This document shows positions 5,001 through 62,440 of a stretch of DNA of 64,000 bases, in pieces (position 1 is the stretch's first letter; every line of letters begins with the position of its first letter). The position numbers were made by a program, and so were the translations under genes. The stretch covers positions 20,088,001-20,152,000 of the forward strand of contig CM120645.1 of assembly GCA_051362555.1 (NCBI GenBank), read 5' to 3'. The DNA comes from Lingula anatina (taxonomy: Eukaryota; Animalia; Brachiopoda). The notes beneath the pieces are model-generated. The model saw only the letters and a list, made by a program, of their open reading frames with translations. It made no database searches and was not told where the DNA came from.

Positions 5001-7092
5001 AGACAAATCAAACACACAAGCAAAATATATCTACAAAGTAAATCTAATAGCAGTTATCTTGGCCCGAGTTTCAAGGGCAACGCAAGTCAACTCCTTCATT
5101 GTGAAGCACATTTTCATATTGACCCGCTCAATGACAGTCCAATGCAAATCTTATTGAAATGGAGATTCGAAAATAACGGGACACGTCTCAGATATGAATC
5201 TCAATGCAAAGTATCCTTACCTCACTTCAATTTCAGCCTCCCTCTGCTGATTGAGGAGAATCAACTCCCTAGTGACATCATAAATAGGAATGTCAGACAA
5301 ATAGAACTGCTTGTCCATTAACTCATTAAGGTTAGTAAGGCGTGGGGAACAGATGAACAGCATGGCGTCTAAGTTGAGGAGAACGATTTGGCCTGAAAAT
5401 AGAAACCAGGGATGTTTTAAAATGTAAGCCTCAACTTGGAACTTGGAACGCTTCAAACAAATCTCTGACTCAATTAGTCACAATTCAGGACTCAACTTTT
5501 GTGAAGAAAAAAAAAGGCAAATAGGCCTATTTCGCGTTGACTAAGAAAAGAATCCGAAAGACCACATTTAGTTGAAAAAAAATTAGGGACAGGTTGATAA
5601 AGAACAACTAACACAATTTATAAGGCAAAACTTGACACAATTTCAACTAACACATTCAACTTAGACGTTTCTCAAACACAAAATCACATGTTTAAAGCCG
5701 AGAACAGAATTATCTACCCTCACTTGTAAGCCCAGGTATGAATTTTAAATTTCTATTTTACAGTTTAAAGTCACCAGCCTTTGTTTAAATAATGCGGAAA
5801 AAACATTATACATAATACAGCAAAATACATCGTAATTTTGTCAACGGTTTTGGATAAGGGTTCTTCAATTGTTTTTAATACGGGAAGGTCAAGCGCTCAT
5901 TTTCTGTTTGCAAGGTACCTTTTAACGGCATTCTCGTCTGCTTGACCGAGAACACAAACACTGCATTAATGAACATCACGATGTTATCCCAAGTCATGTT
6001 GATAAGGGGATGTTCCAGGACGAAATTCTCCCGCAAACTGCTACCCGCTGCCCGAATTTCAGGGCACAGCCGCTGGATACCCGTGCCGCTCTGTAACACG
6101 CACAACTCACGGTCAAATATGATGTGAAAGGGAAAAGCGGTGCAGAAATTTCGAGGATCAATGTGAAGGGAGTCAGGGAAGTGAGGACTGAAGTCCTTTG
6201 ATTCCGCGATCACTGATGTCCCGTTTGTTGCCCCGTTAGGGGTGCTAGTCTCTTTGGCTGCGGTTGTTTTTGATGTTGTTGTTGTTGTTGTTGTTAAGGA
6301 GTTTTTGTTTTCCGTAACCCTGAAGATCACGTGGTCCTGAGCCGCCATGCCAACGTTGTTGGTGTTTGTTTGCTCTCCCAGCCGATCTATCACTTCTATA
6401 GTACAGTCGATGTTGAAAAGTTCTCTCCCCACTGCTTTAACAACACCTGAATAATAGATTTTTACAAATTTGAATAACTCATTAAAGGTATTCAATGCGC
6501 ATTAGGTACTTCGATAGCAATAACATTCGTTTTCCTTGAAATTTAACTTATTTCCCATCAATTCATTTACTCGGATTTTCACTTATTGATACGTGGAACT
6601 CGGTTGGTGTATCCTGGTAATAAAAGGAGTTGAAATTTCCAAGAAGATTGACATTTTGCTTTATAAAAGGCCTAACGGGCATGATATGTCACGTAAAAGT
6701 TCATGTGCACGCAAAAACACATACAAGATTATTTACGCCTATCTTGGTAGTTGACCGAAAGAAGATATACGTTATTGTATTACAGATCGACATAAAAAGG
6801 AAGGAAATGTTTTTGTAAATCTCTTTTCTCCGTTTTCTTGTCAATACGCTTACCTATCACGATGGGGTAGAGCCCCTTGCGAGGGGAGATGTAGTGTAAC
6901 GTGAGGGTGCCGTCTTCATTGCTCTCACACCTGAAAAGGTTTAGGCTTGAGCTTAGTTCATTTACTTTTCGCGTAAGGTTTTTACCTCACATACGCACAT
7001 TCAGACATGCACACACAAATACAAGCACATACACACACAAACGCACACACAAGTACACAATATGAATGAACGCACCAGCACAGTAACGCGCG

Positions 7093-46614: not shown

Positions 46615-49600
46615 AATTTTCCCATTAGGTCAAGACTTTTGCAGAGTGCCAGATCTCTGAAACCATGCTCTAAAGATGACCAGGTCCAGTCCCCCTCCAC
46701 AAGCCAGGTGGCCACCTCTGGAATGCTGCTAGGGTCTATTAAAAGTCAACTCCCTGTGGTCAAGCATTGTCCAGTTCCTAAAGGGGAGAAGTCAGAGATC
46801 AAAGACTGGACAAAGTCAAAAATGTCAAATGTGAAAAACAAGGAAGATAAGGTACAGTTTTTCTAGGTTATAAAAAATAAGTGTTACAGTATAAAAATTA
46901 TGAATTTATTCTTAATAAAGAGAGAATGTTGTGTGAATTGCAAAGTCTCACAAACAATGCAAAACATACACTGTAGGTGTCATACACTGTAGGTGGTAAA
47001 TTGTATATATGCACTGTAACAGACATGTATGATTTAAAGTGATAAATATAAATATGCTAATAGTATGTTGTATGACATTTGTCATTTATATCCACATTTT
47101 ACTAAATCACTCTTTCTGTTTTGAAGTCCACTAAGGGAAAATCCAAAAACAGTGTATCAAGAACTCTGCATTCCTTTTACAACTCACCAGGAAAGAGTAA
47201 AGTGGCACCACCTATGGAGGATGTAGGTGACAGCGATGTCATCATATGCGACAGCGAAAATGAAAGTATGGAAGTGACAGAGGACAAAGTGACCACTAGG
47301 AGAGATAAACTAGAATGTACGTTTTTTTATTTGAAGAATTTATTTGAAATTTTGAAAAATACCCAAAATTGACATTTTATATGTAGATTATGTGCACTAT
47401 AGTCTTTTTTTAATCAATGATTATCTTGATTTTTGTCACAGTAGACTCTATATGTAATAGCTAAGTCTGTAACAAATGTATTTGCTTATGTGCTGAAAAA
47501 TATCAGTAAATGAGAAAAATGAAACTGATAGTTACATCGTATTGGGTGAGAATTTCATATTTATTGTCATCTTGTAAGGTGGTAGCATTTTAAGCATGCT
47601 GTTTACCAAGTGATATGTGAAAAATGTAGGGAAAAGATTAAGAGCAGGCAGTCAAATTATATCTGAGGAGACTTACAATGTCCTTAATTTTCTCATTAGA
47701 CCATAGTCCTGAGAATCCAGATACACCAATAAATAAAACACCAGGAAGCAGCAAACCTGACAAAGGTGCAGATTTTCTTGCTTTAAGTTCTGCCACAGGG
47801 GGCACCACAAGTACCCCTGAAAGAAAACCGGAGGACACAGGTAAGTTTGTGAGATTTTTGAATGAATGAAATATCCATGAAAATAACAATTTTAAGTGTT
47901 TGATACTATTGTGGGAGCTTACAGTTACAATTGTTTTTTAAAGGTGTTTTTAATCTACTCAAAATATGAAAGATATTATGTTACCATTAATATATAGAAA
48001 AGGAAAGTCTTGTGGAGGGAATCACAGAATTCAGATCTAATAATATGTGAAATGTTAAAAGCTTGATTTGAATGTGGACTTTGGATTCCGAACTAGAAAG
48101 TTTGTCCAAGTAATGTGAAGCTTCCTGCTGGTCAGTGTTCACTATTAAGTTTCAGCTAATACCAAAGAAAATTCATTTTCACAAAGTTTGTTCAAGTCAA
48201 GATATCACAATCATAATTTGAGGTAAAAGATAATGAATTGTGTGTATTTCTTACAATAATACTTTATTTTATTTCTCAGAGATCTAAATAATTCGTTGCA
48301 TGTATGATGAATTATTTACGCTGATTCTGTGATCAATATTCTCCTCAGTGGACTGTCCAGTTTGTGGAGTAGCCATTAAGCAGAGGAACATCAACCTCCA
48401 TCTTGACCAGTGTCTAAACAGGAGTGAAAAAAAGGAGGCTCTCAGAAGGTATCCCCCACCCCCCATAAAAAAAGAATACTTAGTTCATTTATGAATTAGG
48501 TAATTAAATATAATAATCATGATAAACTTCTGTATCAAGGAGGTAAAAAAAGCAAGGGCTGTTCCTGCGCATGACCATTTACCTGCAAACTTTGAGAGAA
48601 ATGTTATGCCCATTCGAGATCAAAAATGTAAGTTGTTTATATCAATATACTTTAATATAAATTTATATAGGAGCCTAGATTTAATCCGTTTGATTGCTTG
48701 GCCCCTGCAGGCCAGGTGCGTGTGGTAGGTGGGGTCAAGTGGGGTCAGCCTTACACTTGTTTACCAAGACTATATATTTACTTATTTTTTATTCAGACAT
48801 GCTGAAAATTTTTCAGAATGGCCGGACATTTGGACCAGCAGTAATGAAAAATTTGCTGGACCGAATTGATTTTTGTCAGACCGAAAATCACCCTATTCGT
48901 TTTAGACAGATACTACCAGTACGATTAGGGTAGCTTACTTTGTTTGTGAATGTGATAGTTTTGAAATGGAAGGGAAAAATGCTTTGGGCTTTATATAATT
49001 TTATTAGTGAAGTATGACTGTTAATTCAAAATTGCGGTTCTTAAAACTCTTGTCGGTCCTGTGGACCGACCAAGTCCAATTTTCTACCGGTCCAGACAAA
49101 TTTTCCCGGTCATGACCGATCGGACCGACAGTTTCAGCATGTCTGTTTATTTATTTTTTTTTATTTCATTTTATTTATTTTATTTTATTTCATTTCATTT
49201 CATTTCATTTCATTTCATTTCATTTCATTTCATTTCATTTCATTTCATTTTATTTTATTTTATTTTATTTTCAGTTCTAAGCCTCAGAAAAGGAAACAAA
49301 TGGCAAAACTGGTGTATAACTTGATGTCAGACAAAGACATCAGAAAGAAATTAAAAGATATAGGGCTACCATCACAGGGAGACAGGCAGGTTAGATTGTT
49401 GCTCCTTATTCAAATTATTATTGCATCAAACTGTAATTTTTGTTATCACTATCATTTCAGTTATCACGTAGGAATGAAAGTTATTCACAAAAAAAAAATG
49501 GGTGTTGTATTTATACCCCCAGGGCCCCAACCCCTCCATACAGAGCTGCCCTTTGGTGCCTGCATTTTAAAGATTTAAAAGGCCTTCTGTCATAGCTGAT

Positions 49601-52600
49601 CACAAATTTGAACAATTAGTGGTAAAGATGAGAGCCACATTGCACCCCATTCTCATAGATTAGATTGACCTACATTGGATCGACCTAACTCCCTGGGGGT
49701 TCACGCTAAATAGCTGTCAGCCGGGCGGACACGAAAGTTAATTACCCCTTAAAGCTTGTAGTAGGCGGGGACGGACACTTAAGGCGGATTATCTGACAGT
49801 AATCTAGTGAGACTCCCCGCGGTGATAGATCGATCTAAAAGTTGTGAGAACAGAGCCTTAGACACAACATATAATGTGATTAGATTTTAACTGACAAAGC
49901 ATTATATGTAAATACACAGTGGTAAATATCACATCAAACACAATCAGGGGACTGTTTCACAAAAAGAGCATATTGTTGAAAATTGGTCTGAACTTTCAAA
50001 ACCCCAATATTTGGTTTACATTAGATTGAGATAAATTTGTTTTACCCATTAATTAAGTATTGGTCTGTAACAGTTGCTATGTTTTTCTTTTAATAAAGCA
50101 GGGCTAAGTTATGTATCATTTAATTGGATTAGTAGTAAATTTCAAAGCAGACTAATTTTTTTGTGACAATTTCAGACCAAAGTTTGTTTTTGAAACCAGC
50201 ATCAGCTGTTACACCCAAACAAATAAGTTGTCACATCCAATGCAATCAGCTGTCATACCCAACACAACAGTTGTCACAACCAACACAATCAGTTGTCACA
50301 CCTAACACAACAGTTGTCACACTGAGTCAAATTTGCTAAAACATTAAACATAGTAAAATTACCCTTATGATCTTTGCTAATGTTTTTCAGACACTAATTA
50401 AGAGGCATCAAGAGTTCACAATGCTATATAACTCACAGTGCGACTCACTGAACCCAAAGTCAGGTAGGCAGTATCCACCAGGCAAACTGGGATAATGTAC
50501 TATTATAATTGTATTAGAATCTCTTTTATTCACCTAGTTAACTGTAGTAATAAGATGGATGGTAGAATGGCTGTCAGCTTTCTTTGGAAGTAAGTAAACA
50601 GAACATGAGAAAACCATCTACAGAATAGAGCATTTACTGCCAGAAAAGCTATTAGATTCTGTGCCAAAACCTTTTTGGCCAACTGGCAAGCGAGGCTTTT
50701 AAATCTACTGGTCCCAGTGAGAAACAGTGGCCAGAAACTCTACAAACTGACGCTATTGAACTGGCTTGATTTGATTGTTACTGGCATTTTGCTTGTGTTA
50801 ATGAAGTATAGTGTTATTATTTTCAGCTCAGGAGATTATAAAAGACATGGAAAGACACGAACGTACCAAAAGCAAACTTGCCCTAACAGCAAGCACACAA
50901 ACTGTGAGTACCCTTTTTTTCATCTTTGTTATTTTTTCCTTGAGAAATTAATGTGAAAATTCAGATAATGTGCCAGAGAAAAGCGAATAATGAAACATAA
51001 AAAGGAAAGTTTACTCTGTGAAGAACATATAAGAAGGTGAAGTGTGTAATTTTCTTATAAAATTCATCAGTGACAGTGCTTCTGACTGAAACTGTTAACC
51101 CAATCATAAAAGTTGTTTCTTTTTAAAATATATTTCTTTAAATATTTATTTATTTTCAGAGACTGGCCTTTGAAAAGGGAGACTCTGCAGAAAATGTGGA
51201 AAAAGCTCAAAAGGAGTATGGTAAGACAGAGCATTTGTGCCTACTTCATCACCGTCTAGGTGCAATAACTTTGAGGCACTTTAGACTTTTTTGTAGCAAA
51301 GTATAAAACTTCCCAGTAAATATTTCCACTTTTTCCCCCTAATCACTAAGACATACCTTAAACAATGACCAAGCTATGATCTATGAATATTTTTTTGCAG
51401 TTTAACTATAGCTTGCTTAAAAACTTTTGTTAGACATGAAAATTCATTTTAAGGCTTAATAACGAAGAGCTTTTCCATTTATTTTCAGTCAAGAAACATA
51501 AATCTCAGTTTGATGATCTCATTGCCAAGGCCAAGGCTAACATGAAAAAGAAGAAAGCTGAAAAAGAAGCCTCATCAGCCAGTCGTACTGTTACAACTAG
51601 CAATGTACCTGAAGGGACATCATCAACAATAACAAGTAATGACACACTAGATGTAGATTCTTTGACCTCCATGACCTCTATGACCTCTGTGACCCTCATG
51701 ACCTCTGTGACCTCCATGACATCTGCAACCTCCATCACTACTGCCACTCCTGCAACAAGTGATTCATTGTCATATGGACATCAGTATTCAGATAAGGATG
51801 TAAAGGGAACAAAAATATCATTTGTGAAAGGAATTCAAAAGACAAAAGATTCAGATTTGTCTACTGATGCAACTGTGACAAAGACAAACTCATTACTAGC
51901 ACAAGAGGAAAAGGAAAATGTGCTTAAAATTGGAAAAGTGGAAGATTTTAATAGTTCAAGGACATCTAATATCCTTGATGGTTCAATAACCCCACCTCTC
52001 ATTGACTCAGACCCAGAAGAAGAAATTGATGGAGACGAGGACAGAACCCTTGGATTTGACCCCAATGTCAGTGTCAATAGCAACCGTGTATTTGGTGGTG
52101 AAAACCCAAGTGCACCCCTTGCCACTGGTGTTGTAGACCCTAATGCACTCCTTGCCATTGGTGCTGTGGACCCCACTGGCAGCTGTCCGTCAAATCGAAG
52201 TCCTGCTGCCAGTAGCACGGATGATTTGATTGACAATATCGTGAATAGTCCTCCGGTCACAAATGTGGACTACATCGATATGCTGGTGAATGGCAATGTT
52301 GATGTTGGCGAGGTTGATGACAGTATTGATAATTTATCCAGATCTCCAATTTTGCATGGGGAAGGCTCTCCTGTGTTTGAGAGCATAGAACGAAGTGGTG
52401 ATGGAGATGGTGTGAAGGATTGTCTTGACAGTTCTCCCATATTTGAAGGAAACAATGCTATAAAGTTCAAGGATCATGCTGACGGAAAAGGTAATGTGGA
52501 AGCAAGTGCAAGTAAACTGATTGGAACCAAGTCTAATGTTGAAAATGGATGTGACTTTAAATCAGGTTCTGGTGTATTTGAAAGAAATTTTGTTTCAGAA

Positions 52601-53878
52601 ACAAACCTTGGTCAAAATCAAGATCTCCAGGTTAGAACAGTGAGTAGGAATACAGATTTGAAAGATGCATATCCTGATAATGACACAAATGTTAAATCTC
52701 GTGATGTACACCAGAAAGATGAGGAATTTGGAAACTTTAATCTCCTTGACTCCAGTCCTTTTTTCCAGTCACTTGGAGGATCTGACAATAATAGTAACAC
52801 TTTGAAAAATACAGTAAGAGAAGGTGAGACTTAACACCTTAAATTCTTAATTGTGTGCATTTAATTGTTTGGAAAAATGCTTGTGTTACAAGGATTCATA
52901 AAACTGTTGATATTGTGTCAGAATCTTTATGATACAAAATTAGAAACAATTACATTAGTTAAGAAGTGTAAATGTTCCTCTTTCTGTCATGGCTTTAAGT
53001 GAATGTTCTTTTGAATATAAAATACTACTTATATCATAGTCACGTGGTGTGAACTCATTGATTTGAATTTATATTTGTTATTCGGTTTTCACTTTTTTTG
53101 TTAGACAAACAGGAAAGAAACATGGATGACATAAGCCTCTCTGGTACCAGTGATAATTCTAACCAGTCAGAGTCATTGCTTCCATCTTCTTACATCCAAT
53201 CTGCCCAGCCTGAGCAGGATTTATGGGCCAGCCAGGGATCAAGGTCATCTACTGGGTCAAGGTCATCAGCAGGGTCAAGGTCATCTAATAGATCAAAGAC
53301 TTCTGTTGAAGTTGATTCAACATTTCAATCTGCAGTCACTGAGGAAACTGTTAGGAGGTCAAAGAGGGGAAGAAAACGGTGAGTTGTTGTGCCGTAGAAA
53401 ATTATATGGACTCTTATTTGTTTCCAAACCATCTAATTCATTTTGAATGTAGTCTTATGTCCATGTTTCCAGCAATGATAGTTATTCATCAGAATTAAAG
53501 GTTTAATCTTCCTCTATTGTTTACTTATTAATTAACATTTTACCTCTTACAACCGAGAAAAAAAGAAAAAGAACTGCCTTATTTGAATCACAATAAAGGA
53601 TACAAGTATGTTTTCAGACAAAATATTGGTCAGTAGCTTCAAAAGTATACCTTTTACCTCAGTAAAGTTATATGAGACATCAGAAAGCAGTAATTAAACC
53701 AAAAGCACGACATTGTTTACTGGTGATTATGTGAGAACCTTGCTTTTACAGATCTGTAGACACACACCCTGATTCTGCCAAGTCGACAGGGAGAAGAGGA
53801 AAGAGAAAGCAGCCCGCAGTGCCTGAGCTTAGTCCAGAACCAAATCAAACAAGAAAACTGAGAAAAAGGACAAAATGA
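43913..53878 (+). CDS. RAD18: E3 ubiquitin ligase RAD18 (RING, UBZ4, SAP, RAD6-binding helix, long acidic tail), ~998 aa
   Basis: Exons 43913-43978, 44736-44817 (LLRCPICFDYL..CSHN), 45512-45573 (YCSLCIRRF..CPTC), 46108-46178 (LRNNRLLDDIV), 46629-46851, 47127-47316, 47700-47840, 48349-48448 (UBZ: CPVC..INLHLDQCL), 49275-49389 (SAP: KLVYNLMSDKDIRKKLKDIGL), 50391-50463 (LIKRHQEF..YNSQCDS), 50827-50903, 51160-51220, 51489-52823 (KHKSQFDDLIAKAK...), 53105-53378, 53752-53878 (basic end, TGA). Total 2997 nt in frame. Confidence 0.92.
44858..45010. mobile_element. MITE family B, copy 2 (opposite orientation)
   Basis: GGCCCGTAACTC..GCATCGCG / GCGTGATGCTTTCGAGTTACGGG; the interior reverse complement matches 8124-8180. 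Confidence 0.75.
48794..49145. mobile_element. Non-autonomous DNA transposon (MITE) in RAD18 intron 8
   Basis: Perfect 14-bp TIRs CAGACATGCTGAAA / TTTCAGCATGTCTG, subterminal GGACCG repeats, TTTATT on both flanks. Confidence 0.75.
49146..49272. repeat. (TTTCA/TTTTA)n pentanucleotide repeat forming the pyrimidine tract of RAD18 exon 9
   Basis: Directly visible; abuts the acceptor at 49273-49274. Confidence 0.9.
49642..49857. mobile_element. MITE family A, copy 5
   Basis: Internally near-identical to copy 1 (CTCCCTGGGGGTTCACGCTAAATAGCTGTCAGCCGGGCGGACACGAAAGTTAATTACCCCTT); ends GAGCC|TTA. Confidence 0.8.
50203..50322. repeat. ~22-bp minisatellite CAGTTGTCACACCTAACACAA
   Basis: About five degenerate tandem units in RAD18 intron 9. 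Confidence 0.8.
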
Positions 53879-55107
53879 ACCCATCCAGGATTTGCACCTA
53901 AAAAATCTTCCAAGGCTAATGAAATTCTCAAGTGTTTAACATGATCAAGTTGTCTTTCCATTTCAGTGAGAGTAGAGTTCATTTTGCATTTGTTGTCAAC
54001 ATGAGGTATATTTTACCAAAAAGTGCAAGTTATTCAGGTCACTACTCAGGAGCCATTTTGTAGCTGTGTTCAGAGCATTTTCACACAAAAATGTTTAAGC
54101 TCCAAGCTCAAAATACTGAGGCCAGTTCCGCCAAATAACTATCAATAAAGTCTTAAAGTTGCTCAACTTCTTGAACAAAACTCTCGTCTACTTCAACAAG
54201 TAACTGAACTTTGACAAATCTATCTTAGATCAGAGAAGTATAAAGTTCTGTTTGTGAAACAGACCCCTGCAGTCTGGCAGCATTTATATAACTTCTTAAT
54301 ATGTCAGTTAAATGATGCCAAAGGAAAAGCAAGTATTCATAAAAAGAAATGAGAATCATGGTTGTAATTAAAAGTAACATTTTATTGTTGTCTTACAGTG
54401 GTATCATGTGGAATGTTCTCGAGTTTCATAAACAGATTATGTGTAAAACAGGTACCAAATAAAACAAAATTCTACACATTTAACAACTGCATAGTCATTT
54501 CATTTTGTTTGTGATCAGATTACAAAATGGAAAGTGAAGAGTCGATGTGGAAGATACCAGCACCCTGACCAGCTGTTATGAATAATCTTCATGGCTGAAG
54601 ATGTGTTTTATTTATTTTCATTTATGTAGCACCTTCACTCTTCTTGCTATGCTGGAAAACATTAACATTGAAGAAATACTTCATGCATTGAAGAGTCCTT
54701 ATTGCAACTGTATTCAACTTATAATAATGAGTTCCTTTAAAAAAATGGCAAAGTCTTTGTATCAAAATAAAGCAATATACATGACAGAGTAGCTTGTGTG
54801 GGCAAAAAGTTCACAATATTCAAACTGCATTAATTTCATAAAAAAATCAGCATTGTTTAGTGAAACAATGAGGCTAAAATCAGCATTGTTAAGTGAAACA
54901 ATGAGGCTAAAAATGTAAGATATAGGACTAAATTTTAGTTCGAAATAAATGACATTTTGCCTTAATGCATTAAACTATTGAAAATTCATCATAAGTGGTA
55001 GTTCACAACAATAATTAGACCCTCTCAAACCTTCAATACTTGGCTGTCACAGAAAAATTGACATACTATAGTAAGCTTAAAATGCATAAAATAAAGAGAA
55101 AATAACA

Positions 55108-58100
55108 TCAGAGCTCGTCCCTCTCAGCTGTTGGTTTTATCTGCTTGTAGTTTTTGTTTCTTTTTGGTTTAAATTTCAACAGTTTGGCATATTGTTTCAG
55201 GAGCTTCTCCCAGTAACATTTTACATCCTCCATTCTCAGGTGGTCCCATATGAACTGACGTCCTCTGTAATGAATCATATTCCAAGATAAAGAAGTCCTT
55301 AAATTTCCACATTTGCTATAAGTGATCAAAGTTAAAGTTACCACATAACTGATAATTTTTTGTTTTTTTGGACCAAACATACAGAAATCAAGTTTTTTCT
55401 TCCTTCGTTATAAAATAACACATTACATGATATGTATTACTGTTTTAAACTTTACATCCAACCACTGCATGCAGTTCTTCTAAGTCCATACCTTTTAGCA
55501 ATCTCTCTAACAACATCATCATTAGCTTGTGCAAATTCCAGGAGTTCCCTGAAAATAAGTTAAGAACAGAAAATGTTAGCCTAGAGGCAACCTTGTATTA
55601 ATAATATCATCTGATGTTGAAAAACAAAATGAACAGTGAATCAAATATTTATTGCAATGATCAAAATTGCATTAATTTTGCTTGCAAGGTCAAAAGTGAA
55701 ATGATATTTTACAGTGTCATTGAGCAACACTCTGGAGATCCCATTTTACTAAACACAAGCTTTTAGAGAAGGGCATTATGAGAACTTAAGGTAGATAAAT
55801 ATTCCCCAAATATAAATGGAACAAACTGCCTTAAAATACTGAAAAGTCACAAAAAACTATAGAAGTATTTTACTTTATCTCCAATATATATAATTTAATA
55901 GATGAAAAGAGTTGAAAATACACTGACACTAAAAAAATAATAAAAAAAAAAAACGGGGCCTGTTTTCATCAAGGCTGGATAGCGCTATCCTCTGAATAAG
56001 CTATCCAGCATTTTTAACCACTGGATAGTGCTATCCAGCCTTGAGGAAACCTGGCCCTGTTTTTTTTTATTATTTTTTTTAGTGTCATTATATTTTTAAC
56101 TCTTTTCATTTTTGCAAGGTGCTTCAAGATTTCACTGGAACTCCCTTCATAACAGTTAAATGAAATACTATCACTGTTATTATCATTATACTTACTGAAC
56201 ATCTGAGAGATCTTGTTTCACAGGAATATAATGGACCCACGGTTTCATTGCTGGGTAGAAGAATTCCAGCCATTCATCCCCAACATGGAATACAACAGAG
56301 TCGCAGAGGAAGAGATGCTTTAACCTAAAACTGGCTGCTACTCCACGGAAGTTGAACAAATATCTGAAAATACATGTTTATGCAACTTTTAAGAATTACA
56401 GCTAAATACTGACTACAGAAACCAAAATAATATCATAATGCTTATTTTGTTCACATCAATGCTTATTTAAAGGGCTTGTATCCAAAATTAACTAGTTTTT
56501 CAAAGAAATGCTATTACATTCTTGAGGACCACACACACTTAGACTAGAGATAGATTGCTGAAGTAAATATTAATAAGAATTAATTTAAAATAAATGCATT
56601 GAAATAGCATTACTTTACTGTTACAGTAATACTTTTCATCAGTCATTTCAAAATATAGTTGATTCACAAAAAAATCTTACGACTGAAAGCAGGCTTAAAC
56701 TTAAAGAGTAAATTCTCTACTTTGACATTTATAAGGTGGCCCTGTCCGCTAAACCACCTTGCAGTCAGTGAGTAATAACAACTACTCACATCAGTCTGAT
56801 GAAGACCTGCGTCCAGGTTGGCCATGAGCTAACGGTATGAATGTTTTTTAGCTTGTGTTTGATAATTTTCATTTATGATTGTACCTATTGTATGAAAAGT
56901 AAGCAATAGCTAATATAAGAACTGTAAATTTAATATTCCTTTTCAGAGGATCCTGCACTAAATCAGACTTTCAGTCTTGTATGAAACAAGGCAGATCTAG
57001 ATATAAATAAATGGTCTTGCAGAGCCTCGTACAGCTACCTACTTGTATGGACAGTGGTCCTCCAGCTTGACCTCCTGGGCAGGAGGCATATGGAGTGTGT
57101 CCTGGAAGGACCAACAGAATCATTAACTGGCTATTTCATTACTGTGGTATTTTTCCTCATATGTAAAATAAATAAATATTACAAAAATAAATATATAATA
57201 ATATTAGAAGTGTATGAATAGAGTAATCAATGAATTTATAAAAAAGTTATGATTGATTTAATATGTTTTAAATATAAAAAAATAAACAATTCTAATAAAA
57301 AGTATAAAAATATTGAAAGTCAGGCCTGGCAAACTGTGTCTGGATTCTACAATATTGTAGAATGCATTTGAAATTACTTCCTCAATTAATATAATTCTTA
57401 TATAACATTTCACAGTTTATATATACAGAGGTCTTTGCGTAACTTGGACAATTTGGGAGCTGAAAATTTGTTTGAATTTAGAGAAGGTTCTGGTTGGGTG
57501 ATAAACACAAAATTCACCTTATAATGAAGAAAACATATACCCCAAAATGTTATCATTATATCTGATGATTCAAGTTATAGGGCAATGAGTTAAGCAATGT
57601 CTACAGCATATGATTTTCACATCTCATTATGTATCTCTCAGCCTAGGCGCTATATGTGTGAAGAGGTATTTAGATTAAAACTCTTACCAAAGCCATATCA
57701 TACATAGGTTCAAATGTGGGTTAGGTCAATATTTTTTGTAAACAAAACAGATAACATACCAGGTAAACTGATTACTTAAAGAGGAAATAGGGCCCAGTAC
57801 ACAGGGCGTGTTTATACACACCTACTAGTACAGTCAAACTCAATGCAACACCAGGCATCCAATTTCTTATAATGCATATATACTGACAGTCAATAAAAAC
57901 GCATCAGAAAACTTTCTTATACCTTTTTACCGAGAATCGATTCCAACCATATAAATGAGTACAAATGCACTTGTTTGGTCATAAGAGAGTCACCTTGTTT
58001 GACTGAATAATGGGTCATATTTCACACAGAAACTGTTATTTTCTTAATGTTCCAAAGGAACTTTAAATATTATTTGATAAATAAATGATGTGTTTTCATT

Positions 58101-58878
58101 GACTGTCAGTATATTAACTTTGAGTGCCTTCCCTTTCCCCCCCTTTCTCCTTCAAATAACGGAGGAAAAATCTGCCCATATTTCCTGTTGCATACAGTAA
58201 AACATTAAAAGGGTGTCTTTCTCAAAATTACCTGCTAAATCGCCATTATTTTGCACATAACATATATAGTAACAGATGTGTGAGAACACAATACACAATG
58301 AAGTGACAACATAACACACCACAAAAGTGTATTAAAATACATGCAAAAAGACACACAATAGACAATGACAATAACAGACATGCCTCATTTCAACCTCATG
58401 AATGAGGCAAATCACTTACCTTGTCTGACTTCCACGCTTGGTTTTTAGTGTATTGTGCATCGACCAGATCAGGCCTTTTTCGCGAAAGCAGTATAAGCGG
58501 ATCTCTCTCATCACTGGTGCGTGAGCCTATGAAATACCCAAGATTTTTCTTTTTCTCCCACGGCCACTGTTCGGCTTTTCTGATAAAAACACAAAGTAAA
58601 ACATAATACATATTACATCTGAGCAATAGACCAGGATTCATTCACAGCTGCAGCCAGCTGGGCTTAATACAACAAGATCTTTGACTGAAATTTTGACCAA
58701 GGCACTCATAAATATCATAAATAATATACAAAACACATGTTAGATTAAGCCCAGGGTTGGCTGTATGATAATTTGGGGGTTGGGAGGGGGACAGTTGCTA
58801 AAAAATTGCATCTTTACAACCTCCAAGAAACAAAACTTATTCAGCTGGTAAATAAATTAAGGTCAGGGTTGGTAGCAG

Positions 58879-58928
<50 letters not shown>

Positions 58929-61900
58929 CTTTTTTTTGGGGGGGGGGGGCTTTCAAACTTACTCTGGTATCACCTCTCTCATGAGATCCCACCTTCCTAT
59001 GCCCTTGGGGTACACAGAGATGAAAGGCCCTCCCTCCCAAAATGTCCAAGCAGGGTACATTATATCATACTGCTCCTTAGTCTACAAAAATAAAAAAATT
59101 TATAAAAAATCTGTGAGAAGGAGCCACTTACTTCGGGATAATATCCCGCTGCTGGTCCCAGCGTCCTAGTCCCGTGGGATAAATTGGCCACACAGCAGGG
59201 CCTCCTTCCCAAAATGTCCATGCTGGATACATAATGTCATGATGTTCTTTTCTCACCTGATAATTATTATAATATAGACAATATAAATTTACTTGCTGAT
59301 ATTGAAAATTTATGTTGTTAAAGTTACAGCAATACTCATTTAAAGGTTTTATAATGGAAAGCATAAATAGTTTCCAAGTGGACAGCAGTATAAATAAATA
59401 ATAAAATAAAAACATGAATTACTAATAAAATAAATATATATTCAATTAGTTTACCGATTTATATAAATAAAACTTAACAACCAATAATTATGCTTCATAT
59501 AAAAACATGATTGGCATCAAACATACACTATAATATTATTAATTTGCTAAAATAATACCAAATAAATTAATCTGACTTACGAAAAAGAAAGAAGAGTTTG
59601 ATTCAAAATATAGATAAAAATATATCTACCTTACTAAATGAAAACACAGGCAGGGGATCCCAATACTTGGGTGACTGTGGATAGTCCCTTGTGTTCAGTA
59701 TAAACTCCATGTCTGGAAGTTTTTTAATAAGTTCCAGAACAAAGTGCTCTACACCACTACACCTGAAATAAGACGATAAAAATTACCAATGGAAGTTCTC
59801 AATAAAACATTGTCATACAATGTGATATTCATTACAAATTAAAATCAGTGGAAGAAAAAATCCAGTAGAAGAATTAAAAATAATTACATATTTATGTACA
59901 TAGATTACCTCAATTATATTTGGAAACTCACAACAAAAATGTCAAATATGAAAACTATGTGAGACTGACAAAATTATGACTATGTAGTGTGACTGTTAGT
60001 GCAGGATTGATCAAACCATCACTTGTTTCATTGTTTTTTTTTTTCTTGTTACTTGCACAATTTAAAATGTGACCTTATATCAGAGCTGACTGGGGAGTTT
60101 TGAGCATGAACAAGAAATAGTAGTGTGTCTTTCCATCTTTTGTTTTCTGGGAGAGCAACATCTACGTATCTTGATTGGCATATTATATATGTGACACTTT
60201 GATTACAATGTGAAAATTTTAAAAAGTACATGCAGGTCCTTACAAAACTTTCCTATCTAATTTTAATTGAAATTAAAATATATTTAACTTGGACTTACCT
60301 AAATTGAAACATGCAGTCATCTTCTCTATACAGCTTGTGGTTGATGATTTGGTAGTGAGTTCCACGTTCTTTAGCTGCATCAAATTTTTCTTTCAAGATT
60401 CCTCCTGCTTTCTTCCATACTGCTAAGTCTTCCTCAATAACCCTGCAATTAAATCACAGTGTTAACTAACCAAATCATAATTATTATTACTGATGCATCT
60501 CTGAAGATCTACTTTACAGACGTCATATATAACTGGATTATATATGACATCTGTAAAGTAGATCTTCAGAGATGCATCGGTAATAATACTTATTTTTCCT
60601 TAAAAATCTATACAGTGAATTGACATGAATCTTTGGACCAACCAAATCATCAAACACTTTTGTTTGAAATCTTACATGTGTGAAAGAGATGGGTGAATTA
60701 TTGGGAGAGTCATGACAGAAAAAAATATAGAACTCAAAAAACAGGTAAGACGACAATAATTTCCTTAACAATATTGGGAAGGTTTTATCTTGGATTAAGG
60801 GGGAATTATTTAAGTTTTCAGGAAATTTTTCTTTTGTTACATGAAAATCACATGGCTGTACATTTTGAGCAATTTTTAAAAGTTGCACTCAGTAATATTC
60901 TCAACAAATTATGTGTTATTCTATTGCTAACATTATAAAATAATAATTCCAAACATATTTAATCTTGCTTGATGCTGATGTACTAGTAAGCATTGTTCAC
61001 ATGAATGTGTTTGCACAATTGATAATACACCTTATAGAGGACACAGAAAGCTCACTACTACCAACATGGCATAATCTCCCTCAGTATTTACTTCTCCAGA
61101 GTATGTAGTAAGCGTAGGAATGTAGGCCATCTTTGAAGTGTTTTCATGCATGCCTTTTCCCTTGTGATATTTCATAGTATGTAGACTATAATATATAGTA
61201 CTTACTCTGCATGACAGGAACAATCTTCCTGGATACACTCCTTATAATTTTTCACCGCATTTTCAATTTTCTTGTAATATTTTTCCCATCGAGGATCTAC
61301 AAACACAACAACAACAATAATAACAATAGCTATGCTCAATAAGTAAATCTTTTATATTATCAAGAATCTTAAATCTTGAACCTGTTCTGTAAGCATTGTT
61401 CGGTACATGTTTGGTAAAGAAAATGAAAAAAAAAAAAAAAAAAAACATTGGAAATACACTGAAATAGGTTTTTCGTGGTATCCTTAGCAGTGATGATAAA
61501 AATTAATTGTTTCATCTCTTTAGAAACTGCCTAGTAGTATCCAAAGGTCAAACCACTTAAGAACAGCTTTACTTTTGATGATAATGGAAATACATAATGG
61601 ATATATTCAAGCAGTATAGATGTTGGTACCTTCATCTTTGGTGTGCAGAAATGAATATATATTCAGTAAACTTATAACACAAGATGTGGCTAAAACACAA
61701 TAGTGGCTATGCAAAAAGTGACAACAATTGCTCCACAACATTTCAATTTGAATTGATTTTTATTAAAATGGGTAGCAAATTGACTTGAGTTTCTCTTAAA
61801 CACTAAAAATCATGTACTAGTATTTGACTTCAATTTTGACATAACTTACAAATTAAATATTTCAATCCTAACCATTGCCAGGATAACGTGACTGTTTACT

Positions 61901-62440
61901 CTTTTCAATTAAACTTACACTGATTTGCTTTTTCTCAAAACCAGGAGGAAAATAATGAGTCAAAAATATAACGGCAAACATACATGTACTAATACATAAA
62001 CGTAAGCCACATTGTAAGGTTAGCAAGGTTATTAGCAATATTAATAATTGGATAACAGCAACAATGGCCAGTGGCATGATCTACATTTCCCTCAATGCAT
62101 AAACAGCAACAATAAATAGCACTGTGACTTGCGATAATGTTAGACCTTACTCTGTAACATTTTTGCTGCAGTTTACATGTAGACATACCGTGTAAATATA
62201 CATGTAGCACAGGCAAACTGCAGCAGCTGCACAAGCAGACACGGGCTCAAACAGGGGCGACGATTCGGCGACCGGTGTAACACCAAACCAAGAAAATTCC
62301 ATCAAATGAAATAGCAAAACAGTTCAAATGCGAATTCAGCGATATTTACCTGTCTTGGTTTCTTTATCTGAGATCGACGTCTCGACATTTAGAAGTAAAA
62401 GTATCGCCGCCGCTCCGACGATCCTCAGCAGCGTGTCCAT
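55108..62440 (-). CDS. POGLUT1: Protein O-glucosyltransferase 1 / Rumi (CAP10/GT90), ~394 aa with exon 5A or ~392 aa with exon 5B
   Basis: Exons 62350-62440 (signal peptide [18 protein letters not shown]), 61206-61296, 60299-60442 ([16 protein letters not shown]), 59630-59762 ([30 protein letters not shown]), 59132-59256 ([14 protein letters not shown]), 58420-58579 ([27 protein letters not shown]), 57043-57101, 56196-56363 ([34 protein letters not shown]), 55492-55548, 55108-55264 (ends RDEL*, ER retention). Confidence 0.96.
55902..56109. repeat. ~208-bp imperfect palindrome with a central MITE-like core
   Basis: ATGAAAAGAGTT..TGACACTAAAAAAATAATAAAA..GGCC..TCAAGGCTGGATAGCGCTATCC is mirrored by GGATAGTGCTATCCAGCCTTGA..GGCC..TTTTATTATTTTTTTAGTGTCA..AACTCTTTTCAT. 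Confidence 0.85.
57881..58111. mobile_element. Tc1/mariner-like MITE in a POGLUT1 intron
   Basis: TA|TACTGACAGTCAATAAAAACGCATCA ... TGATGTGTTTTCATTGACTGTCAGTA|TA: ~26-bp TIRs with TA flanks. Confidence 0.75.
58879..58948. repeat. (ATT)n microsatellite plus T and G runs next to the exon 5B donor
   Basis: Directly visible. Similar (ATT)n runs lie at 44254-44296 and 46580-46610. Confidence 0.95.
58963..59081 (-). CDS. POGLUT1: POGLUT1 alternative exon 5B (paralog of exon 5A at 59132-59256)
   Basis: tttttgtag|ACT AAG GAG CAG TAT GAT ATA ATG TAC CCT GCT TGG...ATA CCA GA|gtaagt encodes [39 protein letters not shown]. It is open and has the same entry phase (0) and exit phase (2) as exon 5A. Confidence 0.88.

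Follow-up and report, generated by a model that had tools for sequence, protein, structure and literature searches.

The POGLUT1/Rumi gene of the brachiopod Lingula anatina contains two alternative copies of exon 5 (5A and 5B), both of which are joined to exon 4 in mRNA and which, judged by alignment, encode a human-type and a fly-type version of Loop 2, respectively. The splicing class itself, that of mutually exclusive tandem duplicated exons, is ordinary; what is apparently new is that one POGLUT1 gene swaps these two loop types. We consider it probable that the gene yields two full-length enzymes, which likely never contain both exons and which would differ modestly in their turnover and in their affinity for acceptors rather than in the motif they target.

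Gene model and the loop encoded by the two exons

All coordinates are positions within the window, i.e., the whole 64,000-nt stretch of a Lingula anatina contig that was analyzed. The ten-exon gene, with two copies of exon 5, runs on the minus strand from 62440 to 55108 and is composed as follows.

62350..62440, minus strand: coding exon 1; ATG and signal-peptide-like helix, with Ala for Val at residue 11 as the sole mismatch to XP_013398028.1
61206..61296, minus strand: coding exon 2; its letters are carried by exon 3 loose-end reads
60299..60442, minus strand: coding exon 3; RNA reads and gene-model translation
59630..59762, minus strand: coding exon 4, common to both forms; joint reads, RDYPQ motif
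59132..59256, minus strand: exon 5A, the major alternative; 125 nt, CAG/GTAAGT, RefSeq X1, long Trp-Pro Loop 2
59082..59131, minus strand: intron between 5A and 5B; 50 nt
58963..59081, minus strand: exon 5B, the minor alternative; 119 nt, TAG/GTAAGT, RefSeq X2, short Loop 2
58934..58955, minus strand: C-rich intronic arm that can pair with 59021-59042 of 5B; the stem, not significant, might silence 5B
58420..58579, minus strand: coding exon 6, common to both forms; reached by 5A loose-end reads
57043..57101, minus strand: coding exon 7; gene-model translation
56196..56363, minus strand: coding exon 8; gene-model translation
55492..55548, minus strand: coding exon 9; gene-model translation
55108..55264, minus strand: coding exon 10; the protein ends in RDEL-stop

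The gene is Lingula anatina POGLUT1/Rumi, of family GT90. Exon 3 is a 100% match to Lingula anatina POGLUT1, the Glyco_transf_90 domain (PF05686) was found at 357 and 364 bits in the two isoforms, and Foldseek gave an E value of 1.8e-50 to human POGLUT1 (5L0R) versus 7.6e-25 to POGLUT2. The RDEL at the C terminus is presumably a signal of the endoplasmic reticulum retention type, and the RDYPQ motif in exon 4 maps to the catalytic Asp133 when positions are counted along the human alignment. WEGG is present in 5A as well as in 5B, and both the WXGG motif and Loop 2 are described as missing from POGLUT2/3 (PMC7803782). As for the neighbors, a soluble guanylate cyclase-like gene lies at the start of the window, and an HNOBA domain match was found at 5875-6411 on the minus strand (E value of 1.2e-17). 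A convergent gene on the plus strand (about 49400-54600) ends near the POGLUT1 3' end; it contains a 464-codon low-complexity open reading frame (51440-52834) and, near 49400, an exon that we take to be SAP-domain-like from its appearance.

Both copies of exon 5 start in phase 0 and end in phase 2, so that either one on its own gives a full-length reading frame (394 amino acids with 5A, 392 with 5B). With 5A and 5B both included, translation ends after 201 codons within 5B, 544 nt short of the last junction; with neither, it ends after 175 codons in exon 6, 378 nt short of that junction. An earlier note on this DNA had described the two exons with the coordinates, peptides, canonical splice ends and phases that we found again on rechecking, and had rightly held that both or neither would shift the frame. 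The two isoforms are already in RefSeq (XP_013398028.1, or X1, for the 5A form and XP_013398029.1, or X2, for the 5B form, each one residue off the window translation), but as automatic models with generic names, whose entries are silent on exclusivity, loop type and function. Otherwise the pair is apparently undescribed: in agreement with the earlier note, which knew of no description, none turned up in the literature searched on POGLUT1/Rumi splicing and evolution or on Lingula exon duplication, a body of work with subscription papers mostly outside its scope. A further Lingula RefSeq model of 431 amino acids from another scaffold (XP_013392096.1), which falls in the same cluster and combines 5A and 5B in frame by means of shifted splice sites, probably reflects misannotation of a second haplotype or gene copy.

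The segment swapped between the isoforms is Loop 2, which in human POGLUT1 comprises residues 170-181, lies between the UDP-sugar and the EGF acceptor, in contact with EGF and UDP, and is one of two loops that supply >50% of the buried surface (PMC5543122); the earlier note, which had placed this loop at the EGF acceptor site, was correct. The structure paper further reports that the backbones of Ala172 and Pro178 bond the EGF domain and that Trp174 stacks on the EGF C2-C3 turn, where in hEGF12 it gains further contact with a side chain of the substrate; fly Rumi has a single Lys in place of Trp174-Pro175, and thus no Trp174, and according to the supplement Trp-Pro is found in all animals but Ecdysozoa and sponges (PMC5543122).

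By alignment to 5L0R, the 12-residue Loop 2 of 5A is identical to the human one, as expected for the vertebrate-type loop previously assigned to it, and the DIMYPAW...GRWD stretch of 5A is likewise the human sequence. The Loop 2 of 5B has 11 residues, the fly length, and aligns to fly Rumi without a gap, with five residues before DIMY versus six in 5A; 5B retains WEGG, the counterpart of Pro178 and GRWD and has Phe at the Ala172 position. The shorter loop and the Phe for Ala after GGP had been noticed before, but not that this is the fly, ecdysozoan and sponge form. Among 398 motif matches, the residue after GGP is Ala in 378 and Phe in nine, three of which are Lingula 5B itself. Exon 5 contains neither the catalytic Asp133 nor the elements for donor specificity. 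AlphaFold models of the 5B and 5A forms reached pLDDT values of 90.3 and 89.9, the 5B model lying 1.4 A from 5L0R and 1.5 A from Drosophila Rumi (5F84), but they are silent on loop geometry, given that the loop has a pLDDT of only 61-75 in both.

Further proteins also carry Phe after GGP. The Logan protein P0334 is an intron read-through reading frame in which a short-loop exon with Phe after GGP (GGPFLSIYP) directly follows an exon-4-like end; by path length in the tree it lies closest to 5B, with a long branch of its own. L076, L078, L079, P0402, P0404 and P0413 are POGLUT1 relatives, probably from protists, in which GGGPF follows a WTFW motif and the loop, ten residues long, is a different one.

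Use of the two exons in RNA

RNA evidence was taken from eight of nine same-species raw-read runs (X1 to X8; X9 was left out), using 6-26% of each; joint counts exclude loose ends with short overhangs, mates may be counted twice, and a threshold of three reads applied to the listing of 5A-5B joints and of loose ends. Exon 4 was joined to 5A in 174 of 194 joints (51, 54, 58, 0, 2, 0, 5 and 4 reads in X1 to X8) and to 5B in the other 20 (3, 11, 1, 0, 2, 2, 1 and 0 reads, i.e., in six of the eight runs). These are the junctions 59630-to-59256 and 59630-to-59081, for which the earlier note had proposed a count. On the downstream side, its proposal came out in part: 121 loose-end reads leave the 5A donor carrying exon 6 letters, while at the 5B donor no row of loose ends reached three reads in the eight runs. 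The reads were aligned to a stretch that does not include exon 6; the joint of 5B with exon 6 is suggested by depth arithmetic (in three runs, the depth is that of a single read with its end at the 5B donor; 0.38 = 20/53 or 19/50) and by RefSeq XP_013398029.1, which contains this join.

Neither a 5A-5B joint nor a loose end for a skip from exon 4 to exon 6 was seen at the three-read threshold in the eight runs, although decay of such transcripts could hide some, and 5A-5B splicing could also escape through the threshold itself. With both exons joined to exon 4 in mRNA and no joint between them at this threshold, the pair behaves as mutually exclusive, as had been proposed from the sequence. 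Readings of 5B as an artefact or a pseudo-exon are ruled out by the joint reads, together with the silent variants and the codon saturation described below.

The 5B share of joints was 15/178 (∼8%) in study P1, 4/6 in P2 and 1/10 in P3, and its share of depth was 5.9%, 57% and 5.7%, respectively, so that in two of the three studies 5B is a minor form, at about 6% of depth. The share differs between P1 and P2 (Fisher p of 0.001 on reads and 0.03 when halved for mates), where the excess of 5B in P2 amounts to very few fragments, taken from samples with poor expression and not assigned to tissue, and also between runs X2 and X3 inside P1 (p of 0.005). The use of 5B may vary by sample, tentatively suggesting regulation by tissue or stage; we do not go beyond this suggestion because P2 is thin and the samples are not assigned to tissues. 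Should the choice of exon be regulated, EGF O-glucosylation, for which Lingula has 744 motifs in hEGF domains according to the structure paper's supplement (PMC5543122), would be subject to control at the splicing step.

Exclusion is likely enforced by the 50-nt intron between the two exons, compared with 227-1318 nt for the other introns of the gene, and by the frameshift stops. This intron would place the branch point of 5B too near the 5A donor for the two to be joined, and double or skipped products would be cleared by nonsense-mediated decay. The adenines that could serve as branch points are 18, 29 and 41 nt away from the 5A donor, inside the donor-to-branch distance of <50 nt used as a steric criterion for human exon clusters (PMC5740500), which may not be the limit in Lingula. 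Within the same intron, we observed a cryptic pyrimidine-CAG acceptor ending at 59111 and, in run X3, ∼27 nt of coverage from one or two reads.

In addition, a stem might hold 5B down. The 22-nt arm past the 5B donor is 86% complementary to the loop codons of 5B (-27.7 kcal/mol versus -15.0 for 5A), but this pairing is not significant, given that 117 of 2000 synonymous recodings pair as strongly (p about 0.06), with a z score of -1.47 for the region, and it is based on a C run. Pairing of the inverted repeat (58934-58955 and 59021-59042) would place the 3' half of 5B, together with its donor, in a loop, and the arm in 5B contains none of the six read variants of this exon.

Age and origin of the exon pair

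The two exons are identical at 26 of 39 aligned residues and at 65% of the DNA. Where identical residues are degenerate, the same codon is used in 6 of 22 cases, compared with 8.8 expected at saturation, which indicates from the codons that the duplication is old and its synonymous sites saturated. All six read variants of 5B are at third positions and five are synonymous, against 20% of possible changes being silent (p of 0.0016), and seven of eight variants of 5A are synonymous. 5B thus appears constrained, without decay. An old duplication with selection on both copies, as previously inferred, agrees with this saturation, with the kept protein core and with variants that are mostly silent.

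To place the two loop types, we used named homologs hand-picked from the hits. The exon encodes 39 amino acids in 13/13 ecdysozoans and also in the choanoflagellate Codosiga, which has the short loop; 41 in 13/13 spiralians and in 10/10 ambulacrarians, amphioxus and tunicate; and 40 in 10/10 cnidarians and 10/10 vertebrates. With 41 amino acids in 5A and 39 in 5B, and as far as loop sequences tell, 5A carries the Trp-Pro loop seen in most other animals and 5B the short loop known from arthropods, nematodes, one choanoflagellate and, according to the structure paper, sponges (PMC5543122). In profile comparisons, 5B reached 103 bits with the ecdysozoan profile and 70-80 with each of four others, and 5A scored 142 bits on the spiralian one. 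In a tree of the exon (41 columns, with 2 of 35 branches starred), 5A grouped with annelid and mollusc exons (86/95) and 5B fell on the short-loop side of a branch supported at 81/82. AU tests rejected neither a clade of 5A with 5B (p of 0.29) nor 5B with spiralians (p of 0.23); a recent duplication, which the former would allow, is rejected on codon saturation. A control tree without exon 5 placed Lingula near molluscs, and whole-gene paralogy of ecdysozoan Rumi is conceivable because this tree is mostly unresolved.

A pair older than the protostome split with reciprocal loss is an attractive explanation, and one we regard as quite possible. Short Loop 2, being the choanoflagellate, sponge and ecdysozoan type, would then be ancestral, and arthropods and nematodes would have kept the short copy only and most other animals the long copy only. 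If so, the difference between fly and human in a core Notch-modifying enzyme would go back to reciprocal exon loss and not to a deletion in Ecdysozoa, and the patchy distribution of loop types across animals, which the structure paper records without explanation (PMC5543122), would be accounted for.

We lean slightly, however, toward a duplication confined to the brachiopod or lophotrochozoan line, with the short loop of 5B arising by convergence with Ecdysozoa. Both AU tests permit such an origin, 5B ends in REVIP, similar to the spiralian (E/D)IIP and unlike ecdysozoans, and the N-terminal length difference lies at the acceptor, where it may shift easily. Among the metagenome loci and the cluster members listed, Lingula was the one species in which both exons were seen. 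The metagenome search gave 95 matching stretches, of which 80 were kept, 40 with the exon between introns and 14 spanning exons 4-6 (11 distinct peptides); none of the 80, among which none was identified as brachiopod or phoronid, has a second copy of the exon (best second match 1.3 bits versus 76-79 in the window). Nor was a long and short pair outside Lingula seen in 29 other clusters among the members listed (15/147 and 15/40 in the large ones), a comparison that included mollusc, echinoderm, amphioxus, tunicate, cnidarian and chelicerate proteins, six members without a readable motif and a further group whose members were not compared individually. Against this origin, 5B would have to shed the extra residue at the N terminus as well as the Trp-Pro residue and to regain I-S-x-Y-P, and its best profile score is the ecdysozoan one, with 5A scoring 142 bits on the spiralian profile.

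Consequences for the enzyme and comparison with known systems

Having a human-type and a fly-type Loop 2 in an otherwise identical enzyme amounts to a natural loop swap, which can reveal the role of the Trp-Pro stack in EGF recognition. The 5A form would keep this stack on the EGF C2-C3 turn and bind more tightly; the 5B form, without it like fly Rumi, would bind more weakly and turn over faster and might be altered further by its Phe at position 172, and the share of 5B would, tentatively, be set by tissue or stage. For hEGF12, the reported KM is 7.7 uM for the human and 21 uM for the fly enzyme, with Vmax of 0.18 versus 0.48 and Vmax/KM of 0.023 and 0.022, and both enzymes refuse the same altered substrates, including changed C2-C3 lengths (PMC5543122). 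By analogy, kinetic tuning seems likelier than a specificity switch because human and fly Vmax/KM are equal on Notch EGF12, even though the KM gap cannot be assigned to Loop 2, since the two enzymes differ at many other positions.

It is unlikely, in our view, that 5B is an interchangeable spare, active but without a meaningful difference and kept since 5B transcripts must work. The equal Vmax/KM and common loop-length preference of long- and short-loop enzymes would fit such a spare, as would the backbone nature of the Ala172 and Pro178 contacts (PMC5543122) and the low depth of 5B in two studies. A copy used at 6% would nonetheless be expected to decay, and 5B shows synonymous saturation, an intact core and mostly silent variants, with a share that appears to move between samples.

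An improbable reading is that the 5B enzyme is damped or nearly inactive, its Phe at Ala172 crowding the cleft and lowering O-glucosylation. Yu et al. 2016 reportedly found that an Ala192Phe change lowers the activity of fly Rumi, a mutant of which we saw no mention in the literature searched, again with subscription papers mostly outside its scope. Phe after GGP is rare (9/398 motif matches versus 378/398 for Ala) and the POGLUT1 cleft is described as narrow (PMC13084666), but aromatic residues occur naturally at this position (Tyr in Trichinella and Phe in six further proteins), the catalytic-site motifs around the Phe are kept, and activity could be lowered more simply by a frameshift followed by decay. 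Finally, two forms that glucosylate different EGF repeats or prefer glucose versus xylose donors, the strong version of what the earlier note had inferred, are very improbable, since, although Loop 2 touches the variable C2-C3 loop and the UDP-sugar and Trp174 reaches an hEGF12 side chain, donor choice was assigned to residues 212-227 and 272-278, beyond exon 5, and motif recognition is mostly by backbone and common to both loop types (PMC5543122).

Modest kinetic tuning remains the explanation that we prefer; the fuller picture, in which Lingula kept an ancient short and Trp-Pro pair and uses its splicing to tune Notch-type EGF O-glucosylation in brachiopod tissues, is offered tentatively.

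Human POGLUT1 (5L0R) and Drosophila Rumi (5F84) of CAZy GT90 are orthologous single-domain enzymes that share PF05686 with the Lingula protein. They have one loop type each, and no two-loop isoform pair was seen among the retrieved vertebrate or fly proteins, whereas Lingula encodes both loops, 5B with Phe at the position of Ala172/Ala192. Clusters governed by docker and selector RNA pairing rely on conserved competing pairings; here, one 22-nt stem was seen (p about 0.06). There is also a likeness to tandem duplicated exon substitutions, e.g., in GALNT13/Pgant5/gly-5 and ATE1, which have the same phase, a kept core and variation at the binding surface, as here (PMC9741552). Such events are reported to be usually old and tissue-specific, and POGLUT1 does not occur in the main text of that work (PMC9741552). 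The Lingula pair differs from the cases described there in that each of its two copies has a character state that is fixed in other phyla than that of its partner.
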